DNA of 64,000 nucleotides from an uncultured delta proteobacterium (GTDB lineage: Bacteria; Desulfobacterota; Desulfobacteria; Desulfobacterales; Desulfosalsimonadaceae): the NCBI GenBank assembly GCA_963826785.1, contig CAWGYD010000006.1, forward strand, positions 704,001 to 768,000, read 5' to 3'. The notes below the pieces were generated by a model. That model was not told the origin of the DNA, did not search any database, and worked only from the letters and a program-made list of their open reading frames with translations. Made by a program: the position numbers and the translations under genes. The stretch's first letter is position 1. Each line of letters opens with the position of its first letter. Below are positions 1,074-55,639 of this stretch, piece after piece.

Positions 1074-1174
1074 GTTGCCACCCGGATCAGTATTCCTATC
1101 GCATGTTCCCCATCAACAATGGGCTTGGCAATCTTCAGCCGGCGAACAACAGGATTACTGCCAAAGCATAGCCG
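1074..1174 (+). repeat. ~100-bp array repeat, copy 1
   Basis: GTTGCCA...CCCCATCAA...TTGGCAATCTTC...GATTACTGCCAAAGCATAGCCG. Confidence 0.85.
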
Positions 1175-2441: not shown

Positions 2442-2562
2442 TGCGGTTTACGCTTTTAATCTTATTCCCTTCTTGGATTTCTCTGAATAATACAACAATT
2501 ATTCTCACCTTAATTCCGCCTGTAACAAGTTCATTAGAGGCCATTTTCACTGATATAACTAA

Positions 2563-4099
2563 CCCTACAACGCTCTTCGCTAAGATAAAACTTGATCAAA
2601 GTCCTTTTTTTGGGGCATATTACATGATAAAACCCCTAAAAGAGGAGGTGCCCCATGCTGCCCGACATGCGACAATCGGATTATCTCTACCCAGTGCCAA
2701 AATTTGATCTCAATCAGGACGATGTCAATCAGTTTACAAATGAATTAAAAGGCTTCCATGAACAATTCGATGACTGTTTTTTCAGGTCAGAGTCAAGAGA
2801 TAATTTTTTTCGGTACATCGCCCGCCAGTTCAGCCAAATAGAGCGAAAATCAATTGAGCCGATCGCCATTGCCATGGAAGGCGGGAAGGTTCGCGCAATG
2901 CAACGCTTTGTCAGTGATGCGCCCTGGGATGATAAAAAATTGATATCTAAGTATCAAATTATGGACGATTTGGGTCATCCGGACAACGATAATGATTTTC
3001 GATGAATCCGGGTTCATCAAAAAAGGTGATGACAGCATTGGCGTCGGCAGGCAATATTGCGGAACCGTCGGCAAAGTCAACAATTGCCAAGTCGGCGTTT
3101 TTGCGGCCTATGCTTCACCATACGGCTATGGGTTGATAGACAAGCAATTATATATTCCACAGCATTGGTTTGACGATGATCACGAAGAGCGAAAGAAATA
3201 AATGCAGACTGCCGGAAAATGTTATATTCCAAACCAAGCCGCACCTGGCTGCCGGCATGCTCAAGCATCTCTATGATGAAAAGACCATTCCTTTCGCTAT
3301 GTGCTGGGCGATTCGGTATCAGGGACAAGTGCGGAATTTATTGCTACAATCGAAAGCATGGTGGGAATGACCTATTTGGTGCAGGTCCCCGAAGATACAT
3401 TATGTTGGGCAAAGCGACCGATCACAATCACAAAAAGTTATTGTTACGGCGGCAAAAAGCAGACGAAGCGTATTCTGTCTGACACATCCGGCGATCCAAT
3501 TAAATTCGAAACATTGGCTTCCGGGATTCATAATTATTTTTGGTATCGGCGCAAAGTGTCGGAGGGAACCAAGGGGCCGATCGAATATGAATTTATGAGA
3601 CGTCGTGTGGTTTTGTCCAACAGAGGGCTTCCGGAAAAGGAAATTTGGTTGTTGGTAAGAAAAATGATGGGCGAGAATTTGCGAAATCTGCTATTATATT
3701 AGCAATGGTTCACAAAGCGTGAAAATGAGCACCTTGATCTGGCTGCGCGGTTTACGCTGGGCCATTGAGCAGTGTGTAGAAAATCCGAAACAAGAGTCCG
3801 GGGATCGACCATTATGAAGTTCGTAAATTTCCTGGATGGCACCATCATATGCTCACATGCATGCTGGCCCATTTATTTATTTTGGCACCTGAAAATCAGG
3901 TTGGGGAAAAAAAAGCACCGTCGCTTACTCTATCGCAGCTTAAGATTTTATTGAACGTACTGCTGCCGTTTAGGATATTTGGCCTTGCTGAATCCATCGA
4001 CCTGGCTCGCTGGATTCAGCGTAAAAATCATAAAGCCTATCTGTCCCACCAGAAACGGAAGCTGATGAGGCAGAATGATAAGTAAGATGTCGTTGTAGG
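2563..4099 (+). mobile_element. IS701-family insertion sequence with frameshifted transposase (2655-4085)
   Basis: Transposase fragments with ERKSIEPIA, DESGFIKKG..SIGVGRQYCGTVGKVNNCQVGV and RWAIEQC motifs; terminal IRs CCTACAACG/CGTTGTAGG; flanking CTAA duplication (2559-2562, 4100-4103) fits the YTAR target. Confidence 0.88.
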
Positions 4100-4103
4100 C
4101 TAA

Positions 4104-4501
4104 GTGAAGACCTATTCACTGATTCTGGTCCTGATTGCCGCCATAATCCCCAATGTAATTGGTTGCGCTCATGTTGATAAAAGAACGAAACCAATTGTTT
4201 ATCATGGAAAAGCTTCATATTATGGCGACTGGCATCAAGGGAAAATAACGGCCAATGGAGAAGTTTTTAACAAGAACAAACTCACCTGCGCCAATAAAAA
4301 AGTGCCTTTTGAAACATATGCCGGGTTACGAATAACTCGAACGACAGAAGTGTCATCGTCAGAGTAAATGACGGGGCCATATATCCGGGGCGGAGAGTGG
4401 ATCTATAATACAGAGCGATGAAGGATTTAGGGGGAGTCAAAGATGGCGTAATAGACGTCCGGGTTGAAATAATTGAGCTTGGTTCATGCATCCACCCATA
4501 G
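4104..4501 (+). pseudogene. RlpA-family (DPBB) lipoprotein, frameshifted
   Basis: GKASYYGDWHQGKITANGEVFNKNKLTCA, then in another frame VIVRVNDGA..IRGRRVDL. Confidence 0.75.
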
Positions 4502-4612: not shown

Positions 4613-4712
4613 CCCAAACAATGCAATTTTCTCCCTGCCTTTTCTGTCCAGTAAAATATGGATCTGGCAATCCTCAGCAGGTCAACTTTCGCATTGCTGG
4701 CAGTCACACTTT
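4613..4712 (+). repeat. ~100-bp array repeat, copy 2 (3' end degenerate)
   Basis: GCCTTTTCTGTCCAGTAAAATATGGATCTGGCAATCCTCAG...GCATTGCTGGCAGTCA. Confidence 0.75.
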
Positions 4713-5918: not shown

Positions 5919-6017
5919 CTTGTTTACAATTCTGTTCCATCCGCATTTTATCCCCATGAACGTCGGAATTGACAATCCTCGGCATTTCAATGACACATTC
6001 CTGCCAGTCTAAAGCCG
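5919..6017 (+). repeat. ~100-bp array repeat, copy 3
   Basis: CTTG...ATCCGCATTTTATCCCCATGAAC...TTGACAATCCTC...CATTCCTGCCAGTCTAAAGCCG. Confidence 0.85.
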
Positions 6018-6981: not shown

Positions 6982-7071
6982 TCACAGTATTCCCCTCTTT
7001 TACACCCCATGAAACTTGAACATGGCAATCCTCAGATGGCTAATTTCCGGATTACTGCCAAAGCATAGCCG
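6971..7071 (+). repeat. ~100-bp array repeat, copy 4 (overlaps the hydrolase stop codon)
   Basis: CCCCATGAAACTTGAACATGGCAATCCTCAG...GATTACTGCCAAAGCATAGCCG. Confidence 0.88.
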
Positions 7072-8579: not shown

Positions 8580-8679
8580 TACGGTGAACCTTACAGCAAT
8601 CCTGCAGATCCCGCCCAGTAAACCATTGATCGGCAATCCTCCACACTCCGATAATGGCATTACTGCTGGGTCATAGCCG
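8580..8679 (+). repeat. ~100-bp array repeat, copy 5
   Basis: GCAATCCTGC...TTGATCGGCAATCCTCC...GGCATTACTGCTGGGTCATAGCCG. Confidence 0.8.
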
Positions 8680-11084: not shown

Positions 11085-11154
11085 ATATTTTCTCAGATTT
11101 GAAAATCAAAACCAAACATCTCAAAGAGCAAAATCTCTCTAAATCCCTGAGCAC

Positions 11155-12705
11155 TGATATGGTTGACAGTTGTCAAGAGAAAAAAGTACTTCCTGCCAAC
11201 TGTTTTTCAGCGGTCCTTGTCGTGGTTATATTCCAAGGCACCCAAAGGGGCGGAACCGATAGCGACGGGAGATCACTCTGATATTCGCGGGTTGGTTACG
11301 GCATGCCTTAGCTTCGTCGCGGAGCTGCCTCGGTCTAGGTCCGCGAAGTCGGCCTTAAGGCTTATCCAATAGTGCTTTCAGGGTTCTCCTGGCCGTGGTT
11401 GCGCCCCTATGGCTGCCTTTAAATGCTTTTTTCGTTTTAAACTTCCTTTATTTGCAAATGCGTCCGTTGTAATGGGTTCTTTGTTATGCCGCTACTGGAG
11501 TTTTGTTTCATTGGCGATCGCCCACATGAAAGCACAAAGTTCTCTTGCGATGGCAGTTACGATGACTTGTTTCACTTTGCCTTTGGCCCATAGGTGCCGG
11601 TAGCGTGAACATAGTCGGAGTTGGGCTTTCCATGCAATGTCGCAAATAGATTGTGGTAAGTCTTCTTGCCGTTTGACGATACCCGGCTGACTCTGGCCGG
11701 CAGCCGGTAGGCCAGGCAGCCTCAACCAATACACGCCGCACATGGCCATTGCCGGTCTTGGTGATCGAGCCGCGCCTGATCTTTTGGCCGCTGGAAGATT
11801 CCGACGGCACCAGGCCCAGGTAGCTCATCAGCTCGGCAGGATTTTCAAATCGTTTCAGGTCGCCGATTTCGGCAATCGTCGTGGCCGCCACGATCATTGA
11901 AACACCGCGCTGCTCTGAAGCGCTTGAACGACCGGAACAGTTGCCATTCGGGCAACAGCTGCAGGATCTGATCGGTTAACCGCTGTACCCGATCTTTGCA
12001 CTGGTTAAGGGTGCCGATATACTCCTGCAGGACGACCTGCTGTGACCGGTGGGGCATCTTAATGTCGGACAGCCAGCGCATATGGGCCTGGCTCCGCGAT
12101 GCCCGGCCCGTATAGCGGATGCCGCTGCGAAGCAAAAAGGCCAGCAGACGCTGTTTGCTTTTTTTCTCATCGCCCTTGGCATCCTCCCGGGCTCGTCAGA
12201 TTCTGACGGCCTCGTCCTCAGCCAGGGGAACGTGAACAGCGGTCAGTTCACCGGCGCGATGCAAGCGGGCAAGCATCAGGGCATCCCGGCGATCGTTTTT
12301 GATCTGCTTGCCACTGGGTTTGGGGATCCTGGAAGGAGCCACTACCGAGCAATCGAAGCCCCGGGAAGTGAGGTGGCGGTAGATCTGGTATCCGCAGGGG
12401 CCGGCCCCATATCCAAAATGCAGCCGGTTGCCTTTGCTGACCAATTTTCGAACCACCTTGTCTATTGATGCAAGGGTGCCGTCTATTTGGCCGTAGTGCA
12501 GGATCTCTCCGTCACAGCCGGTTTTCGCAATGGCGATATCGATGGAATTTTTATGGACGTCCATACCAATAAATGTGCTATTCTCTGTCATGACCTGCCT
12601 CCTTGGTTTTGGCTCTGTGTTGGGTGGTTTAAAATGACTTCCAACATAACCCACGTTTGCAAGGATGGCAGGTCTTTTAATTATCAATGGGTGTGCCAAG
12701 TGTGA
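11155..12705 (-). mobile_element. IS110-family element with frameshifted DEDD recombinase (~11492-12591)
   Basis: FIGMDVHK, KNDRRDA, SYLGLVPSESSSG, GNGHVRRVLVEAAW and AIAREL motifs; TGA at both putative ends (11155-11157, 12703-12705); end positions are inferred. Confidence 0.85.
11200..11410 (-). ncRNA. Candidate bridge/guide RNA in the IS110 downstream non-coding end
   Basis: About 330-bp non-coding segment 3' of the recombinase containing stem-forming TTCGCGGA..CTCCGCGACGAA; IS110-family ends are known to encode such RNAs; boundaries approximate. Confidence 0.45.
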
Positions 12706-12710
12706 GGTCA

Positions 12711-12774
12711 GCGAAATTCATCATGGCCGAGAATGGGCCCTCAAAAGCTCGTCGGAGGCCATGATGAATTTCGC
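12711..12774. repeat. 18-bp perfect inverted repeat with 28-nt loop; loop recurs at 27912-27939
   Basis: GCGAAATTCATCATGGCC / GGCCATGATGAATTTCGC. Confidence 0.85.
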
Positions 12775-12782
12775 GGCTTGTA

Positions 12783-12881
12783 CTTGCCGACACAAATTGC
12801 TCTGCTATCTGTCAACCATTATGTCTAAATCTATCAATCCTTGGCACCCCAAAAACGGCATTACTGCCAGACCCATAGCCG
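12783..12881 (+). repeat. ~100-bp array repeat, copy 6
   Basis: CTTGCC...AATCTATCAATCCTT...GGCATTACTGCCAGACCCATAGCCG. Confidence 0.85.
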
Positions 12882-14419: not shown

Positions 14420-14519
14420 CTTGCCAGCTGGATCGTAATTCTGTCATTTTTGCCCCACAAAAATTAGATCTGGCAATCTTCTGCCATCCAAAAGCCGAAT
14501 TACTATTTATCCATAGCCG
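14420..14519 (+). repeat. ~100-bp array repeat, copy 7
   Basis: CTTGCCAG...TTAGATCTGGCAATCTTC...AATTACTATTTATCCATAGCCG. Confidence 0.85.
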
Positions 14520-15624: not shown

Positions 15625-15723
15625 TTCGCCATTTTGATGAAGCAACCTCGCCTTATTACCCGTGAATCTTGGATCTGGCATCCTCAATTGCGAAGAACCG
15701 AGATTACTGTCGAGGCATAGCCG
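15625..15723 (+). repeat. ~100-bp array repeat, copy 8
   Basis: TTCGCCA...CCCGTGAATCTTGGATCTGGCATCCTC...GATTACTGTCGAGGCATAGCCG. Confidence 0.85.
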
Positions 15724-18208: not shown

Positions 18209-18308
18209 CCGCCAACCTTGCCACGAAATGCGTCGCCTTTTAACCCTCCTGAACACTGGACCTGGAACTTCGCAGGCGAATTTCTGGGTTACTGCCAGGC
18301 CATCACCT
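18209..18308 (+). repeat. ~100-bp array repeat, copy 9 (diverged)
   Basis: GCCAACC...CGCCTTTT..CCTGAACACTGGACCTGG...GGTTACTGCCAGGCCATCACC. Confidence 0.7.
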
Positions 18309-21109: not shown

Positions 21110-21210
21110 CTTGCCAACCCCTGTAACAATCCCGCATTTTCTGTCCCATGAACATTTGATCTGGCAATCCTCTGAACACCAAAATCCGCATTGCTGCCAG
21201 TCCATAGCCG
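21110..21210 (+). repeat. ~100-bp array repeat, copy 10 (starts directly after the AraC stop codon)
   Basis: CTTGCCAACCCCTGTAACAATCCCGCATTTTCTGTCCCATGAACATTTGATCTGGCAATCCTC...GCATTGCTGCCAGTCCATAGCCG. Confidence 0.92.
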
Positions 21211-24575: not shown

Positions 24576-24677
24576 CTTGCCAGTGCCTGGAACAATCCCG
24601 CCTTTTCCCCTCGCATGAATATTTGATCTGGCAATCCTCCGAATGGTAATTTCTGCATTACTGCCAGACCATAGCCG
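24576..24677 (+). repeat. ~100-bp array repeat, copy 11
   Basis: CTTGCCAGTGCCTGGAACAATCCCGCCTTTTCCCCTCGCATGAATATTTGATCTGGCAATCCTC...GCATTACTGCCAGACCATAGCCG. Confidence 0.92.
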
Positions 24678-25618: not shown

Positions 25619-25718
25619 CTTGCCATCCCCTGGCGCAATCCTGCTGCATTTCCCCATGAAACTTTAATCTGACAATCCTCAGCGGGCCAATTTCCGCATT
25701 ACTGGAAGACCATAGCCG
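25619..25718 (+). repeat. ~100-bp array repeat, copy 12 (recombinase-proximal)
   Basis: CTTGCCATCCCCTGGCGCAATCCTGC...CCCCATGAAACTTTAATCTGACAATCCTC...GCATTACTGGAAGACCATAGCCG. Confidence 0.92.
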
Positions 25719-25864
25719 AACTGAACCGCTTCGCGGAAATCAACTCCCCCTGCATCTCTTGCTGCTCCGGCATGAATCATCTTTTCCCCTTCAAGAGATC
25801 ATGATTATACCTTCATAATAAGTAACCGTGCTTTTCTTATAATCTTTCCCAAGGAGGTATTATC

Positions 25865-26728
25865 ATGAGTACCGATTTAAAACAGCAGTTCCTCGACCAT
25901 ATGGCCCTTCATCGCTTCTCCAGGCACACCCAGAAAAATTATATCTTGGCGGTCAAAGGATTGGCCCAATTTTACAATCAAAAGCCTGACACGCTTTCTC
26001 AGGAACAGATTCAGGCGTACCTGCTTTATCTCATACAAGAAAAAAAGCTGGCATGGGGATCAGTCAATAACATGTGCTGCGGCATCTCCTGTTTTTACAA
26101 AAACGTCCTGAAATGGGACGAAATCCAATTAAAAATTCCACCCCGGCCGAGAATCAAGAAACTGCCAACCATCTTGAGCGAGGAAGAAGTTAAGCGGCTG
26201 TTTGATGCCACAAGCAACCTGAAGCATCGAGTTTTTCTCAAAACGGTTTACAGTGCAGGCCTTCGCCTCAGCGAAGCCATTAGCCTGAGGCCGGAGCATG
26301 TCGAAAGTGATCCTTCCAGAATGATGATCCGGGTTGAGCAGGGAAAAGGGAAAAAAGACCGCTATACCATTCTTTCCCATAGCCTGCTTCCGGAACTTCG
26401 AGCCTATTGGCGTAAGTATCGGCCCGGCGAGTGGTTGTTCCCCGGGAAAAGCCCCAATCATATGGGACACAGCGCATCAGATCTATCATAAGGCAAAAAA
26501 AAAGCCGGAATTACCCGGGGCCGGGGCATCCATGCATTAAGACACTCCTTTGCGACCCACCTGCTGTATCATGGCACAGACGTATACACCGTTATGCGCC
26601 TGCTTGGCCATCGATCCCTGAAAACCACCGTAATTTACCTGCACCTTCTGCCGGAACGCATCACCCGGATCAAAAGCCCTCTTGACTATCTCTTCGAAGA
26701 AAGCGAGGGCGGCGATGAAAACCGATAA
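25865..26728 (+). CDS. Tyrosine recombinase/integrase (~285 aa, N-terminal SAM-like domain; two apparent frameshifts near 26460-26505)
   Basis: [18 protein letters not shown], then [28 protein letters not shown]; all catalytic residues present. Confidence 0.92.
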
Positions 26729-27389
26729 GGCAAAATTTGAAATGGCAGATGTGTTTCGTCTTTATGGAGACCTTTTCCGCCAGAACAATCCGGTATCCAA
26801 TGCCCAATTCAAGGTAATGAAACACATCGAAATCTGCCGGACCGCAGCACTCGGAGGACATGTCGAACAATGCAGCAGTTGTGGATTTGAACGCATTGCC
26901 TATAACTCATGCCGGGACCGGCATTGCCCCAAATGCCAAACCCTGGTCAAGGAAAAATGGCTCAATGACCGAAAAGCCGAATTGCTGCCCTGCGGATATT
27001 TTCATCTGGTTTTCACACTGCCCCATGATCTGAATCCGGTGATTCTGTGCAATAAGAAAATCGGCCTGGGCATTTTATTTGCCGCCGTAAATCAGACGCT
27101 GCAGGCTTTTGCTGCAGATCCTCAATGGCGCATTGAAGGGCAACTCGGGTTTATCCTGGTGTTACATACCTGGTCACAAACTCTGATAGATCACTTTCAT
27201 CTGCACTGCCTGATTCCGGCCGGCGCCCTTTCCTTTGAAAAAGACAGATGGATTCCCGCAAAACAGTCGTTTCTATTTCGGGTAAAGTCACTGGCCAAAG
27301 AATTCAGGAAACGATATCTCTCACTATTAAAAACGGCCCACGTTAAAAATGGTCTGATCTTTCCCGGCAATACGGCGAAGTATCGATAA
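26715..27389 (+). pseudogene. IS91-family (Y2 HUH) transposase, C-terminally truncated
   Basis: Zn-binding CRT..GGH..CSSCG..YNSCRDRHCPKCQ, HLVFTLP, LHTW..HFHLH HUH motif; stops before the YxxxY motif; overlaps the integrase stop. Confidence 0.9.
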
Positions 27390-27391
27390 TC

Positions 27392-27913
27392 ATGTTTTGC
27401 GGCATGGTTTTCATTTTAGCTGCGTGTGCCGGCCCCAAGCAGATTATTACCAATCCACTGCGTGAATTAAAAACGGATCGCCCACCTGCCATCATCATCA
27501 AGGATCGGTTTACCTTTTCCTATGAGACGGCCCGGTGCGCAAGCACGCAACAGTTCCTGGTTACGGAATCTCCGTTTACGCTGTCCCCGCCGGATAGAGC
27601 CATCCAAATTGATTTAAAGGCTTTGGTTCCCGCTCAATCCCGGCCAAAAAAGGGCACAATCTTCTCTGTATTCTTCCCTGTTAATTCCTGCGCCATAGAT
27701 CCGGATGAATCAGAAAAGCTTTCCGGTTATATCAATGAAATCAAAAACTATCCCGTCGGCCCCGTGAGCGTCACCGGATATACCTGCTGGCTTGGTCCTT
27801 TGGAATACAACCGGAAACTGGCACTGAACCGGGCCAAGGCAGTTGCTGAGATTCTTCAAAAAGCAGGTATCCGAATCGGGTACCCTGCAAATGGGGTTTT
27901 AGGTCGGAGATGA
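27392..27913 (+). CDS. OmpA-like domain lipoprotein, probably truncated at both ends
   Basis: LAAC lipobox; VTGYTCWLGPLEYNRKLALNRAKAVA. Confidence 0.7.
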   Translation: MFCGMVFILAACAGPKQIITNPLRELKTDRPPAIIIKDRFTFSYETARCASTQQFLVTESPFTLSPPDRAIQIDLKALVPAQSRPKKGTIFSVFFPVNSCAIDPDESEKLSGYINEIKNYPVGPVSVTGYTCWLGPLEYNRKLALNRAKAVAEILQKAGIRIGYPANGVLGRR

Positions 27914-27994
27914 GAATTGGCCCCCAAAAGCTCGTCGGAGCACATGATGTCTCCTGCATATTTTTTGCGCTGAACTTTTTCATTCTTTCATCAT

Positions 27995-28097: not shown

Positions 28098-29168
28098 ATG
28101 AAAAAATATGAAAAAGATCTTGAAAGATCTTCAAAGGCAGCACTCCTCTCCTGTCTCGCAGAAGTTCCGTTTCTCAAAATTATTGATGAGCAATCGGATC
28201 TTCGTGAAGGAAATATTCAGGCTGACCTTGCGGTTAAAATCAGGACGCCGGACAGTACGAGGCAGATCATTGCCGAGATTAAAGGCAGTGGGCAACCGCG
28301 ACTTGCTCGTGAAGCTGTAAACCAGCTGCTTCGGTATAAGGACAGGATCTCAGATGGATATTTTGTATTTATCGCACCTTTCATTTCCCCAAGGGCAGCC
28401 GATATATGCCGGTCTGAAGGCATTGGATACATTGACCTGTCCGGTAATTGTTTGTTATCATTTGATACTATATACATCAACAGGGACGGGAATCCAAATA
28501 AGTATATAGAAAATCGTGAGTTGAAATCTTTGTACTCGCCAAAAGCTGAGCGGATCCTCAGAGTCCTGTTATGCAACCCCGGCAGGAAATGGAAAGTCAA
28601 AGAACTGGCCAATGAAAGTGAAGTCAGCCTGGGCCAGGTTTCAAATGTTAGAAAGATGTTACTGGATCGTGAGTTTGTGTCCGGAGAAAGGGGCGGACTT
28701 AAAATGATCCAGCCGGCCAAGCTGTTGGAGGAATGGGCTGAAAATTACGATTACCGGCGAAACAGAATCCAGGAATATTATTCCTTGAAAAATGTTGCTG
28801 ATATAGAAAGCGCCGTGGCGGCCTACTGTGACAGCAATAAAATCCAATATGCATTAACCGGATTTTCAGGCGCCGCTCGGGTTGCCCCTGGAACCCGATA
28901 CAATAAAGCCATGATATACGTTTATGATTTCATGGGAAATGATGTATCTGAGCTTTTGCTGAAAGAGGTAAAGAGCGGGGGAAACCTCTTATTGCTGACG
29001 CCCTATGATGACGGGGTTTTTTATGGGATATCCGGAATTGATGATGTGCAGATCGCCTCAGATATACAGCTCTTTTTAGATTTGCAAGGATATCGGGGGC
29101 GCGGAGATGAAACGGCCCAAGTGCTTTTTGAAAGAATTTTGAAAAAAAATTGGTATCCAGGTTTGTGA
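28098..29168 (+). CDS. Type IV TA AbiEi-like antitoxin / transcriptional regulator
   Basis: APFISPRAADIC..GYIDLSGN, central wHTH, YALTGFSGA, QLFLDL..RGRGDETA. Confidence 0.75.
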   Translation: MKKYEKDLERSSKAALLSCLAEVPFLKIIDEQSDLREGNIQADLAVKIRTPDSTRQIIAEIKGSGQPRLAREAVNQLLRYKDRISDGYFVFIAPFISPRAADICRSEGIGYIDLSGNCLLSFDTIYINRDGNPNKYIENRELKSLYSPKAERILRVLLCNPGRKWKVKELANESEVSLGQVSNVRKMLLDREFVSGERGGLKMIQPAKLLEEWAENYDYRRNRIQEYYSLKNVADIESAVAAYCDSNKIQYALTGFSGAARVAPGTRYNKAMIYVYDFMGNDVSELLLKEVKSGGNLLLLTPYDDGVFYGISGIDDVQIASDIQLFLDLQGYRGRGDETAQVLFERILKKNWYPGL

Positions 29169-29242
29169 TTAGCCTTCAGTGATCGACTGTTTATTTTTTT
29201 TAAATTGGCTAAAGATATCTGCAATAAAAAAGGTAAATTCGC

Positions 29243-29776
29243 ATGAGAAAAAAATGTTATATTATTGCAGGACCAAATGGCGCCGGGAAAACGACATTTG
29301 CAAATGAATTTCTTCCGCGAGAAGCTGCCTGCCTCAATTTTATTAACGCAGACTTGATTGCAAAAGGCCTTTCCCCTTTTCAGCCTGAAAAAGCGGCAAT
29401 TGCCGCTGGGAAAATTATGATTCACCAAATGAATGATTATATTGCAAAAAGCAAATCATTTGCATTTGAAACAACCCTCAGCGGCAGGAATTTCGCCGGT
29501 AAAATCAGAGATTGGAAGTCCCGAAACTACGAGATTATCATTTATTATTTGAAACTGCCGTCAGTGGAATTGGCAATTGAAAGGGTGAAGTTGAGAGTCG
29601 CTCGGGGCGGGCATAATGTACCGGAACATGTAATCAGGCGCCGGTACAGCAGGAGTTGGGAGAATTTTCAACAGATTTATAAACCACTGGCTGATTCATG
29701 GATTATATTCGATACGTCCGGACAATTACCTGTAATTATCGAAGAGTCGAGGAGTATACATGGAAAAACACAATAG
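29243..29776 (+). CDS. Zeta-toxin-like P-loop ATPase/kinase
   Basis: IAGPNGAGKTT, NADLIA, FAFETTLSG, RVARGGHNVPE..IRRRY. Confidence 0.88.
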   Translation: MRKKCYIIAGPNGAGKTTFANEFLPREAACLNFINADLIAKGLSPFQPEKAAIAAGKIMIHQMNDYIAKSKSFAFETTLSGRNFAGKIRDWKSRNYEIIIYYLKLPSVELAIERVKLRVARGGHNVPEHVIRRRYSRSWENFQQIYKPLADSWIIFDTSGQLPVIIEESRSIHGKTQ

Positions 29777-35108: not shown

Positions 35109-35139
35109 GAAGATTTGATTGCCTCGCAGCATCCGGAGG

Positions 35140-35344
35140 AACACCCCCCTGCGCCCCCCTCAAGGGGGGAATAAAAAGGAGTACCCCTCCTTCGTCCCTT
35201 CAAGGGGAGAATCAAAAGGGGCGGGGAATTGCGTCTTCAAAAAAGCATATTTCACCGCATGGGAAATTCGTCCTAACAACATAAAATAACAAACCAATTT
35301 AAGTGAAGACCAATTCCCCCCTCGAGGGGGGCCGGGGGGGTGTT
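35140..35344. repeat. Inverted pair of C/G-tract REP-like palindromes (with an extra partial copy at ~35182-35212)
   Basis: AACACCCCCCTGCGCCCCCCTCAAGGGGGGAAT ... ATTCCCCCCTCGAGGGGGGCCGGGGGGGTGTT. Confidence 0.85.
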
Positions 35345-35422
35345 TTTCCAAAAATCGGCAAAAAACCGGATGATCGCTTCCCCAAATCCCTGGAAAAGGA
35401 AAATGAATAAAGGACCGCAATT

Positions 35423-36013
35423 ATGAAGTACGCCCAGTTCCGTCAGCAGAACGCCTTTGATTTCGAGCAGCTGCTGGCGTTTTCATACGGCCGGCTCATC
35501 GAAGACCCGCCAGCCGATTTTGATGCCAAGCTGCCGGCCCCGCCGTTTCTGATGATGGACCGGATTTTGTCCATCGATAAAAAAGGAAGCCGTGGCCGGG
35601 TTGTGGCCGAGCAGGATATCCGCCTGGATGCCTGGTATTTCCAGTGCCATTTTCCGGGGGACCCGGTTCAGCCCGGGTGCCTTTGCGTGGATGCCGTCTG
35701 GCAGCTGCTCGGTTTTTACTGTGTCTGGAGTGGCGGCCTGGGCGCAGGCCGTGCCCTGGGATGCGAGGAGATCGTTTTTAACGGTCAGATCCGGCCCCAT
35801 AATAAGGTCGCCCGGTTTGAGGTCGATATCGTCCGGTTCCAGGACCTGAAGCAGGCAGGGACAAGCATCGGGATCGCCGATGGCGCCGTGTTTATCGACA
35901 ACGAACAGATTATGACCATCAAGCGCGCCCGCACCGGCATCTTCAGGGAGATTACCTATAAAGACTATCCGATGCGCTCGCTAAACTCCGTGGGCGGCAT
36001 CAGCGAGAAATGA
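35423..36013 (+). CDS. fabA: 3-hydroxyacyl-ACP dehydratase/isomerase, FabA type
   Basis: LPAPPFLMMDRI, WYFQCHFPGDPVQPGCLCVDAVWQLLGF (His/Asp pair typical of FabA). Confidence 0.88.
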   Translation: MKYAQFRQQNAFDFEQLLAFSYGRLIEDPPADFDAKLPAPPFLMMDRILSIDKKGSRGRVVAEQDIRLDAWYFQCHFPGDPVQPGCLCVDAVWQLLGFYCVWSGGLGAGRALGCEEIVFNGQIRPHNKVARFEVDIVRFQDLKQAGTSIGIADGAVFIDNEQIMTIKRARTGIFREITYKDYPMRSLNSVGGISEK

Positions 36014-36030
36014 AAAACAAGCGGCGGCAG

Positions 36031-36148
36031 AACACCCCCCCTGGCCCCCCTCACAGGTGGGTTTTCCAAATGGAAACAAGCCTGGGGATGGACATCCTAT
36101 CTGACCCTCCCCAACTCATTCCCCCCTCGAGGGGGGCAGGGGGGTGTT
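36031..36148. repeat. Inverted pair of C/G-tract REP-like palindromes
   Basis: AACACCCCCCCTGGCCCCCCTCA ... ATTCCCCCCTCGAGGGGGGCAGGGGGGTGTT. Confidence 0.85.
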
Positions 36149-39816: not shown

Positions 39817-40531
39817 CATCGTGGATGTAAAAGCGCCCGGAGCCGCGGGTAAAAGCGGGGATGTTCGCTTCCTGCGCCGGGTCCTTGGCCCTGATGAACA
39901 GCGGGCGGTGGCCGCCTCGGAAAATCCCGACCGGCTCCTGTGGGCATTCTGGGCCGCCAAGGAATCCGCCTACAAGGCCATCAGCAAAACTTTTCCGGGT
40001 ATCATATCCTCCCCCCTGCGCTATCCGGTCAACCTGGGTTTGCCGGATGCCGCAGGCGTCGTAAACGGAACGGTGCAAACCCCATGCGGTCCGGTGGCGG
40101 TGCGGATCCATCTGACTAAAGACCATGTTCACGGGATCGGGATGGTACAAGGATCAAAAAACCTGGATGATGTCGAGTGGGCCCTTGCGCAAATCCCGGC
40201 GGGTGAAATCGGCAGCCGATCAATATCTGAAACGGAATCTCAAATCGTGCGGAGGCTGGCCGGGCTGGGGATTGCAAAGCTCACAGGCCGCCCTTTCGAA
40301 GATATAGACATTATCCGGCAAAAATCACCCCTCGGTCCGGGACCGCCGGTTATCCGCTGCAAGGGCAAACCAATAGACATGGACATCAGTCTCAGCCATG
40401 ACGGTCGGTTCGTGGCCTGGGCGCTTTTATCGGGATTAGCTTCAATTCGGGGAGTACAACGTCATCGCATTAAAATCGGTACGCAGGGACACCCCCTGGC
40501 CCCCCTCGAGGGGGGAATAGTTAAATGCTAA
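39797..40531 (+). CDS. 4'-phosphopantetheinyl transferase
   Basis: IGNDIVD, WAAKESAYKA, ISLSHDG. Confidence 0.9.
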   Translation: MNPIGNDIVDVKAPGAAGKSGDVRFLRRVLGPDEQRAVAASENPDRLLWAFWAAKESAYKAISKTFPGIISSPLRYPVNLGLPDAAGVVNGTVQTPCGPVAVRIHLTKDHVHGIGMVQGSKNLDDVEWALAQIPAGEIGSRSISETESQIVRRLAGLGIAKLTGRPFEDIDIIRQKSPLGPGPPVIRCKGKPIDMDISLSHDGRFVAWALLSGLASIRGVQRHRIKIGTQGHPLAPLEGGIVKC

Positions 40532-40648
40532 TAATGTTAGGAATGGGGGAAGGTCCTCATTCATGCAATCTGTAATTCAATAGCCCAGCCCACCCTCCCC
40601 CCGCAAGCCCCAGCCCAATCCCCCCTTGAGGGGGGCAAGGGGGGTGTC
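40488..40648. repeat. Inverted pair of C/G-tract REP-like palindromes (left arm inside the PPTase 3' end)
   Basis: GACACCCCCTGGCCCCCCTCGAGGGGGGAAT ... AATCCCCCCTTGAGGGGGGCAAGGGGGGTGTC. Confidence 0.85.
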
Positions 40649-55501: not shown

Positions 55502-55529
55502 TGTGGGGGAGTTATGCAATAGAGAACTG

Positions 55530-55559
55530 AATCCCCCCTTGAGGGGGGCAGGGGGGTGT
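55530..55559. repeat. Single C/G-tract REP-like palindrome
   Basis: AATCCCCCCTTGAGGGGGGCAGGGGGGTGT. Confidence 0.85.
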
Positions 55560-55639
55560 GCCGCCGGTGACTGTTTAAAGTTCCTTACTGCAAAACCACT
55601 GTACGGATGGGTACGATGCTGTCATAGGGGCGATTGAAA

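Follow-up and report, generated by a model that had tools for sequence, protein, structure and literature searches.

The window analysed here, the whole stretch of 64,000 nucleotides at C6:704001-768000 of the source genome (labelled G000), contains an array of short repeats which ends directly in front of a gene pair encoding a tyrosine recombinase and an IS91-type transposase. Does this pair build the array, or did it arrive there on its own account? A sequence-only reading of the locus had proposed the pair as the enzymatic engine of the array. We consider that it is probably not, as homologues of the pair have two ends of their own and move without the repeat. With a probability of about 0.7, judged from sequence comparison, two systems meet at position 25718: a cassette array which would be served by a small nested recombinase, and an independent integrase/IS91 element which targets crossover points.

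The gene pair behind the last repeat

The following features were found at the end of the array:

25619..25717, + strand: last junction repeat, ~100 bp, with CTTGCC at its start and CATAGCC at its end; crossover just 5' of G25718
25718..25737, + strand: left end of the integrase/IS91 element, terIS-like, with GAAC and a small palindrome
25865..26728, + strand: IS91-associated tyrosine recombinase, broken (TAA at 26489-26491), without the IntI insertion
26495..26503, + strand: A9 run (A_AAA_AAG), candidate programmed frameshift site, common to many homologues
26715..27389, + strand: IS91 (Y2 HUH) transposase, truncated, with HUH kept and YxxxY gone
27392..27913, + strand: OmpA-domain ORF outside the element, joined to the truncation point of the transposase

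Much of the first description of this region held. The repeat is the last of 12 copies in the window and ends 146 bp before the recombinase ATG at 25865, and the two ORFs do overlap, by 14 nt (transposase ATG at 26715, recombinase stop at 26726-26728). The second gene is an IS91-family transposase with Zn_Tnp_IS91 (PF14319) and Y2_Tnp (PF04986) domains, scoring 250.7 bits against the NCBIfam IS91 model NF033538 (cut-off 125). The recombinase has Phage_int_SAM_4 and Phage_integrase domains; however, the length of ~285 aa originally given to it is a read-through, because the TAA ends the ORF at 208 aa, short of HALRH and the catalytic Tyr. Compared with the relative L003, a net shortfall of 8 nt sets this TAA at 26489, ahead of the A9 run. 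The transposase has 224 aa vs 393 aa in the 86%-identical L002 and ends before YLGRY. YxxxY represents the two catalytic tyrosines of IS91-type transposases, which are Y258/Y262 in L002.

The small indels around the integrase may be assembly errors, since 14-16 gap openings separate the IS701 and IS110 copies of the window from those elsewhere; unlike these IS copies, the module adjoining the integrase is gap-free relative to its own copy. Reads from one run (0.07 share) cover just 27286-27319 and 27422-27676, and neither break. The truncation of the transposase is structural. As assembled, the window copy is a damaged mobile element with both genes broken here. Behind the truncated transposase, 38 bp at 27912-27949 match the end of the IS110 element (12729-12766) with 89% identity and are probably, from this similarity, an IS-end remnant. 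An AbiEi-like regulator and a Zeta-toxin/AAA-like ORF follow at 28098-29776, with the low-GC island extending past the last repeat.

The repeats delimit a cassette-like array

All 12 repeats in the window, each of ~100 bp, are on the + strand within 1074-25717, a stretch which is lower in GC. The eleven copies upstream of the last repeat are:

1074..1173, + strand: first junction repeat in the window, with the array start ~4.4 kb further upstream
4620..4712, + strand: junction repeat, 3' end degenerate, limits approximate
5920..6016, + strand: junction repeat, degenerate, 5' start approximate
6985..7070, + strand: junction repeat without its 5' part
8580..8678, + strand: junction repeat, 5' start approximate
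12783..12880, + strand: junction repeat with an IS110-family element ending within its 5' part
14420..14518, + strand: junction repeat
15625..15722, + strand: junction repeat
18217..18307, + strand: junction repeat, degenerate
21110..21209, + strand: junction repeat
24576..24676, + strand: junction repeat

Three further sites of the same array lie upstream of the window, and in the whole of G000 we found 27 repeat sites by profile and 26 by covariance model. The exact repeat pattern had 10 matches in this genome vs 0 for the reversed control, so the repeat is beyond chance. The strict pattern was also present in 32 metagenome contigs, many of which have additional copies, and the covariance model matched 39 of 58 genomes of the family. 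No match to the strict pattern was found in the 389 same-order genomes outside the family, where an exact pattern would miss diverged forms. The repeat does not correspond to a known RNA, as no Rfam match was found in the scanned part of the window (1-32000). Two mobile elements lie within the array, a DDE transposase element at 2560-4108 and an IS110-family element at 11152-12828, both with genome copies at ~95.5%; the match of the latter stops inside the repeat at 12783, in its 5' part. The housekeeping part of the window contains GC-rich REP-like palindromic repeats in both orientations (35134-36147, 40482-40646 and 55525-55562), which are unrelated to the array repeat.

The last module of the array is present twice in the genome:

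24677..25717, + strand: toxin-antitoxin module (Gp49-like and HTH) plus its terminal repeat, duplicated elsewhere

Over 1042 bp this module and its repeat are 99.6% identical, without gaps, to G000:C6:4199-3158, where a repeat copy identical to 25619-25717 terminates the module at G000:C6:3158. The copy has a different repeat before it and a different gene after it, and both boundaries are CATAGCC/G. In addition, two near-identical repeats on C1 differ in their neighbours on both sides. The array is a genuine cassette-like system, as had been supposed, with a module that recurs and is cut exactly at the junctions. As in integrons, co-oriented sites (12/12 in the window) separate mobile modules.

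Modules begin with an arm of the consensus GCATGGTGCAC, matched by 38 of 61 module starts, and close with the inverse of this arm. The inverted arms of starts and ends pair above random background (118 vs a mean of 99.2). However, there was no pairing specific to the two ends of a given module (118 vs 120.7 when shuffled, p = 0.70, 23 modules). In an alignment of 53 repeats, we found 0 consensus pairs on either strand and a mean z of ~−0.36, with 5 and 7 of the 53 repeats on the two strands having a z below −2. As a conserved hairpin is lacking on both strands of the repeat, nothing indicates a single-stranded substrate; folding rules out an attC-like hairpin and argues against the earlier idea that the HUH enzyme generates single-stranded modules from the repeats. 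The core boxes of attC are RYYYAAC and GTTRRRY, and both were absent from the 53 aligned repeats.

These results bear on another possibility, namely that the true integron integrase of G000 acts in trans on the array as on an unusual cluster of attC sites. This genome does have an IntI above the NCBIfam cut-off (336 vs 265 bits) with attC-like cassettes at C5, and in one metagenome locus (L108) an attC-like site lies directly behind the repeat. However, a repeat which lacks the two boxes, the hairpin and module-specific end pairing makes this explanation very improbable. The IntI gene (above the TIGR02249 cut-off, frameshifted) was found with an attC-like site and cassette genes at L115:3150-4975, equivalent to G000:C5:189150-190975, and a second IntI fragment at C8:211754-212191.

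The gene pair is an element with its own two ends

A transposase search gave 68 homologous loci, in most of which an integrase gene is directly upstream of the transposase gene. Many of the homologue contigs are 2.3-3.5 kb, which is near the size of the element (~2.6 kb). Across the 68 loci, 44 left ends were located, 36 of these with at least 100 bp upstream. They begin with GAACTGAACCGC or a variant, have variable upstream flanks and correspond to G25718 in the window. In the accessible text of PMC13181058, terIS is described as a palindrome with an adjoining tetranucleotide, which is GTTC in IS801 and IS1294; the left end at 25718 consists of GAAC and a palindrome, both conserved in homologues.

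On the 3' side of the transposase, three features are common to the homologues: a motif, the left end repeated in inverted orientation and a long hairpin. The 42 right ends fold with a mean z of −1.95 on the top strand and −2.07 on the bottom strand, and 19 and 20 of the 42 are below −2. The two bases 5' of the left end are the complement of the right-end box at 42 of 56 positions vs 24.1 when shuffled, counted over 28 elements with both ends, which are related and not independent. Without the GTT elements the count was 28/42 vs 19.2 (p = 0.0014; 21 elements, kin and likewise not independent). The foot of the right-end hairpin is shown by covariation and folding to pair with the element's own left end once circularised, which follows the logic of an integron cassette. 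On comparison of the homologues, the pair is shown to be a self-contained IS91-type insertion sequence with two ends of its own.

The right end of the element is absent from the window. We considered whether the repeat could itself be the element's oriIS or right end, and rejected this because the right end is a different one in the closest intact relatives and its profile finds nothing in G000 (best E 1.4). Tandem integrase/IS91 copies were observed at L005:2900-2939 and L022:211-5400; in L005, the 37 bp behind the right end are the same as the 37 bp before the left end, an arrangement like that of a circle or tandem with a captured flank.

The element lies at crossover points

The sequence-only reading had made the presence of the repeat beside homologous gene pairs the test of its proposal. 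The repeat profile matched two of the 68 loci (L002 and L054, both from one genome, G061) and none of the others, which is an undercount because many loci are short. What did stand was that the position of the pair relative to the repeat is not accidental. Both the window element and L054 start at the crossover of the R junction, which in the window is 25718 (p = 5e−6, the floor of the test), and the repeat at L054 differs in sequence. In L003, the 32-nt flank scores as the other end of the repeat (L junction), in reverse (p = 4.5e−5). The module-start arm was found in the right flanks of L001, L002 and L003, which have 83-86% transposase identity; these are 3 of 42 right flanks, against a background of 2.4%, with about six flanks cut at contig ends or out of register. 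The right flanks of L027 (83%) and L004 (81%) did not contain the arm.

Other elements lie at other sites. Fifteen of the 44 left ends are preceded by GTT and seven by GCAA, and attC-like palindromes could be seen by eye before the GTT left ends of L038 and L067. Taken from these flanks, the element looks like a parasite of cassette crossover points, and its link to the repeat is best read as target choice. It should be noted that the junction-seeking elements are few and belong to a single family, and shared ancestry may contribute to the pattern.

Such ancestry would be the whole explanation if there were no targeting: the array's recombinase would have taken up the element a single time, owing to the likeness of its left end to module starts, or the element would have inserted at an ordinary tetranucleotide, and the junction cases would be inherited. 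Every junction case with a recognisable repeat does belong to a single family, GAACTG at the left end is compatible with the loose module-start pattern G-N-A-N-TG and a junction was not seen for most homologues. We nevertheless regard this as unlikely, as the window, L054, L003 and L002 together include both junction types, both orientations and differently sequenced repeats, and a sister clade is found on GTT crossover points (15/44).

At L108:2350-140 (minus strand), the repeat is followed by an attC-like site and then by a distant integrase/IS91 pair (36% and 29% identity) with an A9 break. This is not a second integrase/IS91 pair behind the repeat, as the attC-like site intervenes and the pair begins after GTT, and it indicates that two cassette systems can be joined.

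The IS91-associated integrase and its A9 run

Alignment with IntI1 confirmed the earlier observation that the recombinase in the window lacks the IntI-specific insertion. Its kinship to IntI and Xer proteins, for which the sequence-only reading had proposed a phylogeny, was examined in a quick tree of 56 proteins, from which L007 and L018 were left out (no 230-aa frame) and 3 of 12 "other" picks were lost as duplicates; several of the IS91-integrase rows consist of the pre-slip part alone. In this tree the window integrase belongs to a group of 17 IS91 integrases (support 83, with an inner 14-row clade at 96) which is sister to the 7 IntI proteins, with a joint support of 94. The intact homologue L001 scored 175.9 on TIGR02249, below the cut-off of 265. 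This agrees with the available part of 10.1101/542381, where an "Integron-like" subgroup of IS91 recombinases groups with IntI without having its insertion; in the part of PMC7790495 which could be consulted, the IntI insertion is tied to single-strand recombination.

An A8-9 run was found in 32 of the 51 homologous integrase genes which have both ends. Of these genes, 27 have a −1 break at the run, 3 are labelled +1 and 2 have an in-frame stop. Sixteen of the 51 are single ORFs, none with a run of at least 8, and 3 are broken otherwise. The IS91 integrases therefore have a conserved slippery sequence at a conserved frame break, as expected of a programmed frameshift, and A_AAA_AAG and A9 are both given as known slippage motifs in the accessible text of PMC3711429. 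From this conservation we infer slippage at the A9 site of the integrase.

A nested recombinase is the stronger candidate for building the array

A family search of G000 revealed a different recombinase near the start of the array, ~3.5 kb upstream of the window:

G000:C6:700440-701275: nested tyrosine recombinase

Together with the repeat halves which enclose it, this gene occupies G000:C6:700312-701376 (L069:14313-15377), 3.7-2.6 kb upstream of the window. As the recombinase gene stands between repeat halves, the plain repeat resembles a miniature form of that element without its recombinase. Homologues were found in 22 of the 58 family genomes, with enclosing repeat halves in many relatives, which argues against the IS91 pair as the engine. 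Of the 11 loci with an N-terminus in the genera g1/g6/g10, 9 had the 5' half of the repeat immediately before the gene, with two weak matches (12.2 and 8.5 bits) among the nine; L126 and L143 had no match. In 10 loci, 65-72 nt separate the 5' half from the ATG, and in 7 loci the crossover motif follows 99-102 nt past the stop; in G000 this motif downstream of the nested gene is visible by eye and was missed by the pattern. In genera g3/g5, none of the 9 nested loci matched this repeat profile upstream, and the downstream flank of the recombinase seeds co-oriented arrays of a longer, diverged repeat. Such diverged-repeat arrays around the same recombinase family were observed at L153-L158 (G447, G014, G446 and G036). 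At L086:9679, L094:5014, L119:1464 and L070:8155 (strand-wise), the DNA behind a 5' half of the repeat is not the nested recombinase, and these inserts may use the same internal repeat position.

The nested recombinase has a slippery motif near codon 18 in all 20 loci checked, and the G000 gene has a second frameshift besides this conserved slip. It scored 68.5 and 60.2 bits against Xer cut-offs of 329.6 and 335, was far below the IntI cut-off too, and in the quick tree formed its own clade apart from IntI, XerC/D and the IS91 integrases; the XerC/D of G000 lie elsewhere. None was found in viral contigs, plasmids gave distant matches alone (26-35% identity in the best 10 of 373) and the protein atlas gave matches to generic integrase clusters alone. 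Genome G015 (99% complete) has 16 repeat matches and a nested recombinase with an open catalytic frame of 262 codons past the slip, and no Y2_Tnp match was found in it.

Co-occurrence at the genome level does not discriminate between the two candidates. Of the 30 family genomes with at least 3 repeat matches, the nested recombinase is present in 13 and an IS91 transposase in 12, compared to 9 and 9 of the other 28 and to 7 and 6 of the 8 richest genomes. The 17 repeat-bearing genomes (at least 3 matches) without a nested-recombinase match by this query are mostly fragmented; G035, with 18 repeat matches and 82% completeness, had no match with this query.

Could the IS91 transposase and/or the integrase still excise and insert modules, alone or alongside the nested recombinase? 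The element begins exactly at the crossover in two genomes, and its closest relatives are on junctions, so the enzymes of the pair probably recognise the junction. The CATAGCC at the 3' end of the repeat also resembles a motif conserved 3' of homologue transposases (AATCCCCATAG), module starts have G-N-A like the GAAC of the element, and the clade of the pair is present in 4 of the 8 genomes with at least 16 repeat matches. Set against this, the pair has different ends of its own with the repeat profile in just 2 of 68 loci, the repeat has neither a hairpin nor module-specific end pairing, the arrays of G015 exist with no IS91 transposase match in that genome and both genes of the pair are broken in the window. 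Module movement by the pair is, on balance, unlikely. By sequence and gene context, the small nested recombinase is more likely than the pair to build the array, and the pair may recognise the junction, so that it might have a minor role in moving modules.

A model of the locus

According to the reading in which an array and an independent element meet at 25718, the array would consist of unrelated gene modules set apart by a ~100-bp junction element, with strand exchange occurring at both ends of that element. The cognate enzyme would be the Xer-like tyrosine recombinase, a small protein whose gene has a slippery site close to its start, and it would exchange strands at the arms, probably as double-stranded DNA. 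For the integrase/IS91 element, the HUH transposase would make a single-stranded circle, as reported for IS91 itself in the accessible text of PMC13181058, and the IntI-like integrase, lacking the IntI insertion, would insert this circle at the crossover points of other systems. In the clade of the window element, the integrase would be made at a low level via the A9 slip. The closest clade is predicted to target array junctions and a sister clade the GTT sites of attC/attI, and the window copy would have landed at the last junction and then broken.

A broader picture, which we put forward tentatively and at somewhat less than even odds, is that this sulfate-reducer family has integron-independent cassettes, strung into arrays by a double-stranded junction element of ~100 bp which derives from a tiny recoded tyrosine-recombinase element, and that the integrase/IS91 elements are cassette mimics which integrate at the crossovers of these arrays and of integrons. 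If true, this would explain what the IS91-associated integrase does and would provide a living model for a step before IntI, in the form of a recombinase which is sister to IntI and has no I2 insertion. Specific substrates for tests in the enzyme group nearest to the integron integrases are provided by the covariation of the ends, the rule of target choice and the slip at A9. The array points to a route for gathering accessory genes which rules for integron detection (IntI and attC) would overlook, and the locus illustrates that a mobile pair at the end of an array can be a parasite and not its engine.

Comparison with known systems

The recombinase/IS91 gene pair is already a known kind. A full-text literature search, with most subscription journals and ISfinder outside its coverage, found no paper on this array, on the targeting of non-attC junctions or on an A9 slip in these integrases, and IS91 elements with an integrase did not come up in the accessible parts of PMC5009743, PMC10288648, PMC7923331 and PMC8876359. 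The pair has also been annotated on plasmids of Clostridium. The nearest described elements are of the ISShvi3 type, in which, according to the available text, a recombinase which groups with IntI and lacks its insertion is followed by an overlapping IS91 transposase. ISShvi3 adjoins an attC site and forms a cassette-like structure, as described in the accessible part of PMC9229058. The elements studied here differ in three features which were not found in the accessible parts of 10.1101/542381 and PMC9229058: the closest clade is on junctions of a non-integron array, the right end covaries with the left, and a conserved A9 frameshift splits the recombinase.

Like IS91, IS801, IS1294 and ISCR, the element has a Y2 HUH transposase and a GAAC left end (GTTC on the other strand) with a palindrome, as far as these are described in the accessible text of PMC13181058, and a target duplication was not evident in the inspected flanks. 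It differs from them in having an upstream recombinase instead of orf121 and a long attC-like right-end hairpin. In comparison with IS91 and ISCR, there was no sign that the window copy had mobilised adjacent modules.

The array resembles integrons (IntI, attI and attC) and CALINs in its one-way unrelated modules, its toxin-antitoxin cassettes, a crossover position that is constant within the repeated site and its location in a low-GC island. However, it has no IntI, attC boxes or hairpin, its multi-gene modules occur in either orientation, each end of the site serves as a crossover point and the candidate recombinase is inside a site. The element itself, as a selfish seeker of cassette recombination sites, is comparable to the IS1111-attC elements and group IIC-attC introns described in the available part of PMC9229058. 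These use other enzymes, whereas the element here inserts at the crossover and has a junction other than attC among its targets.
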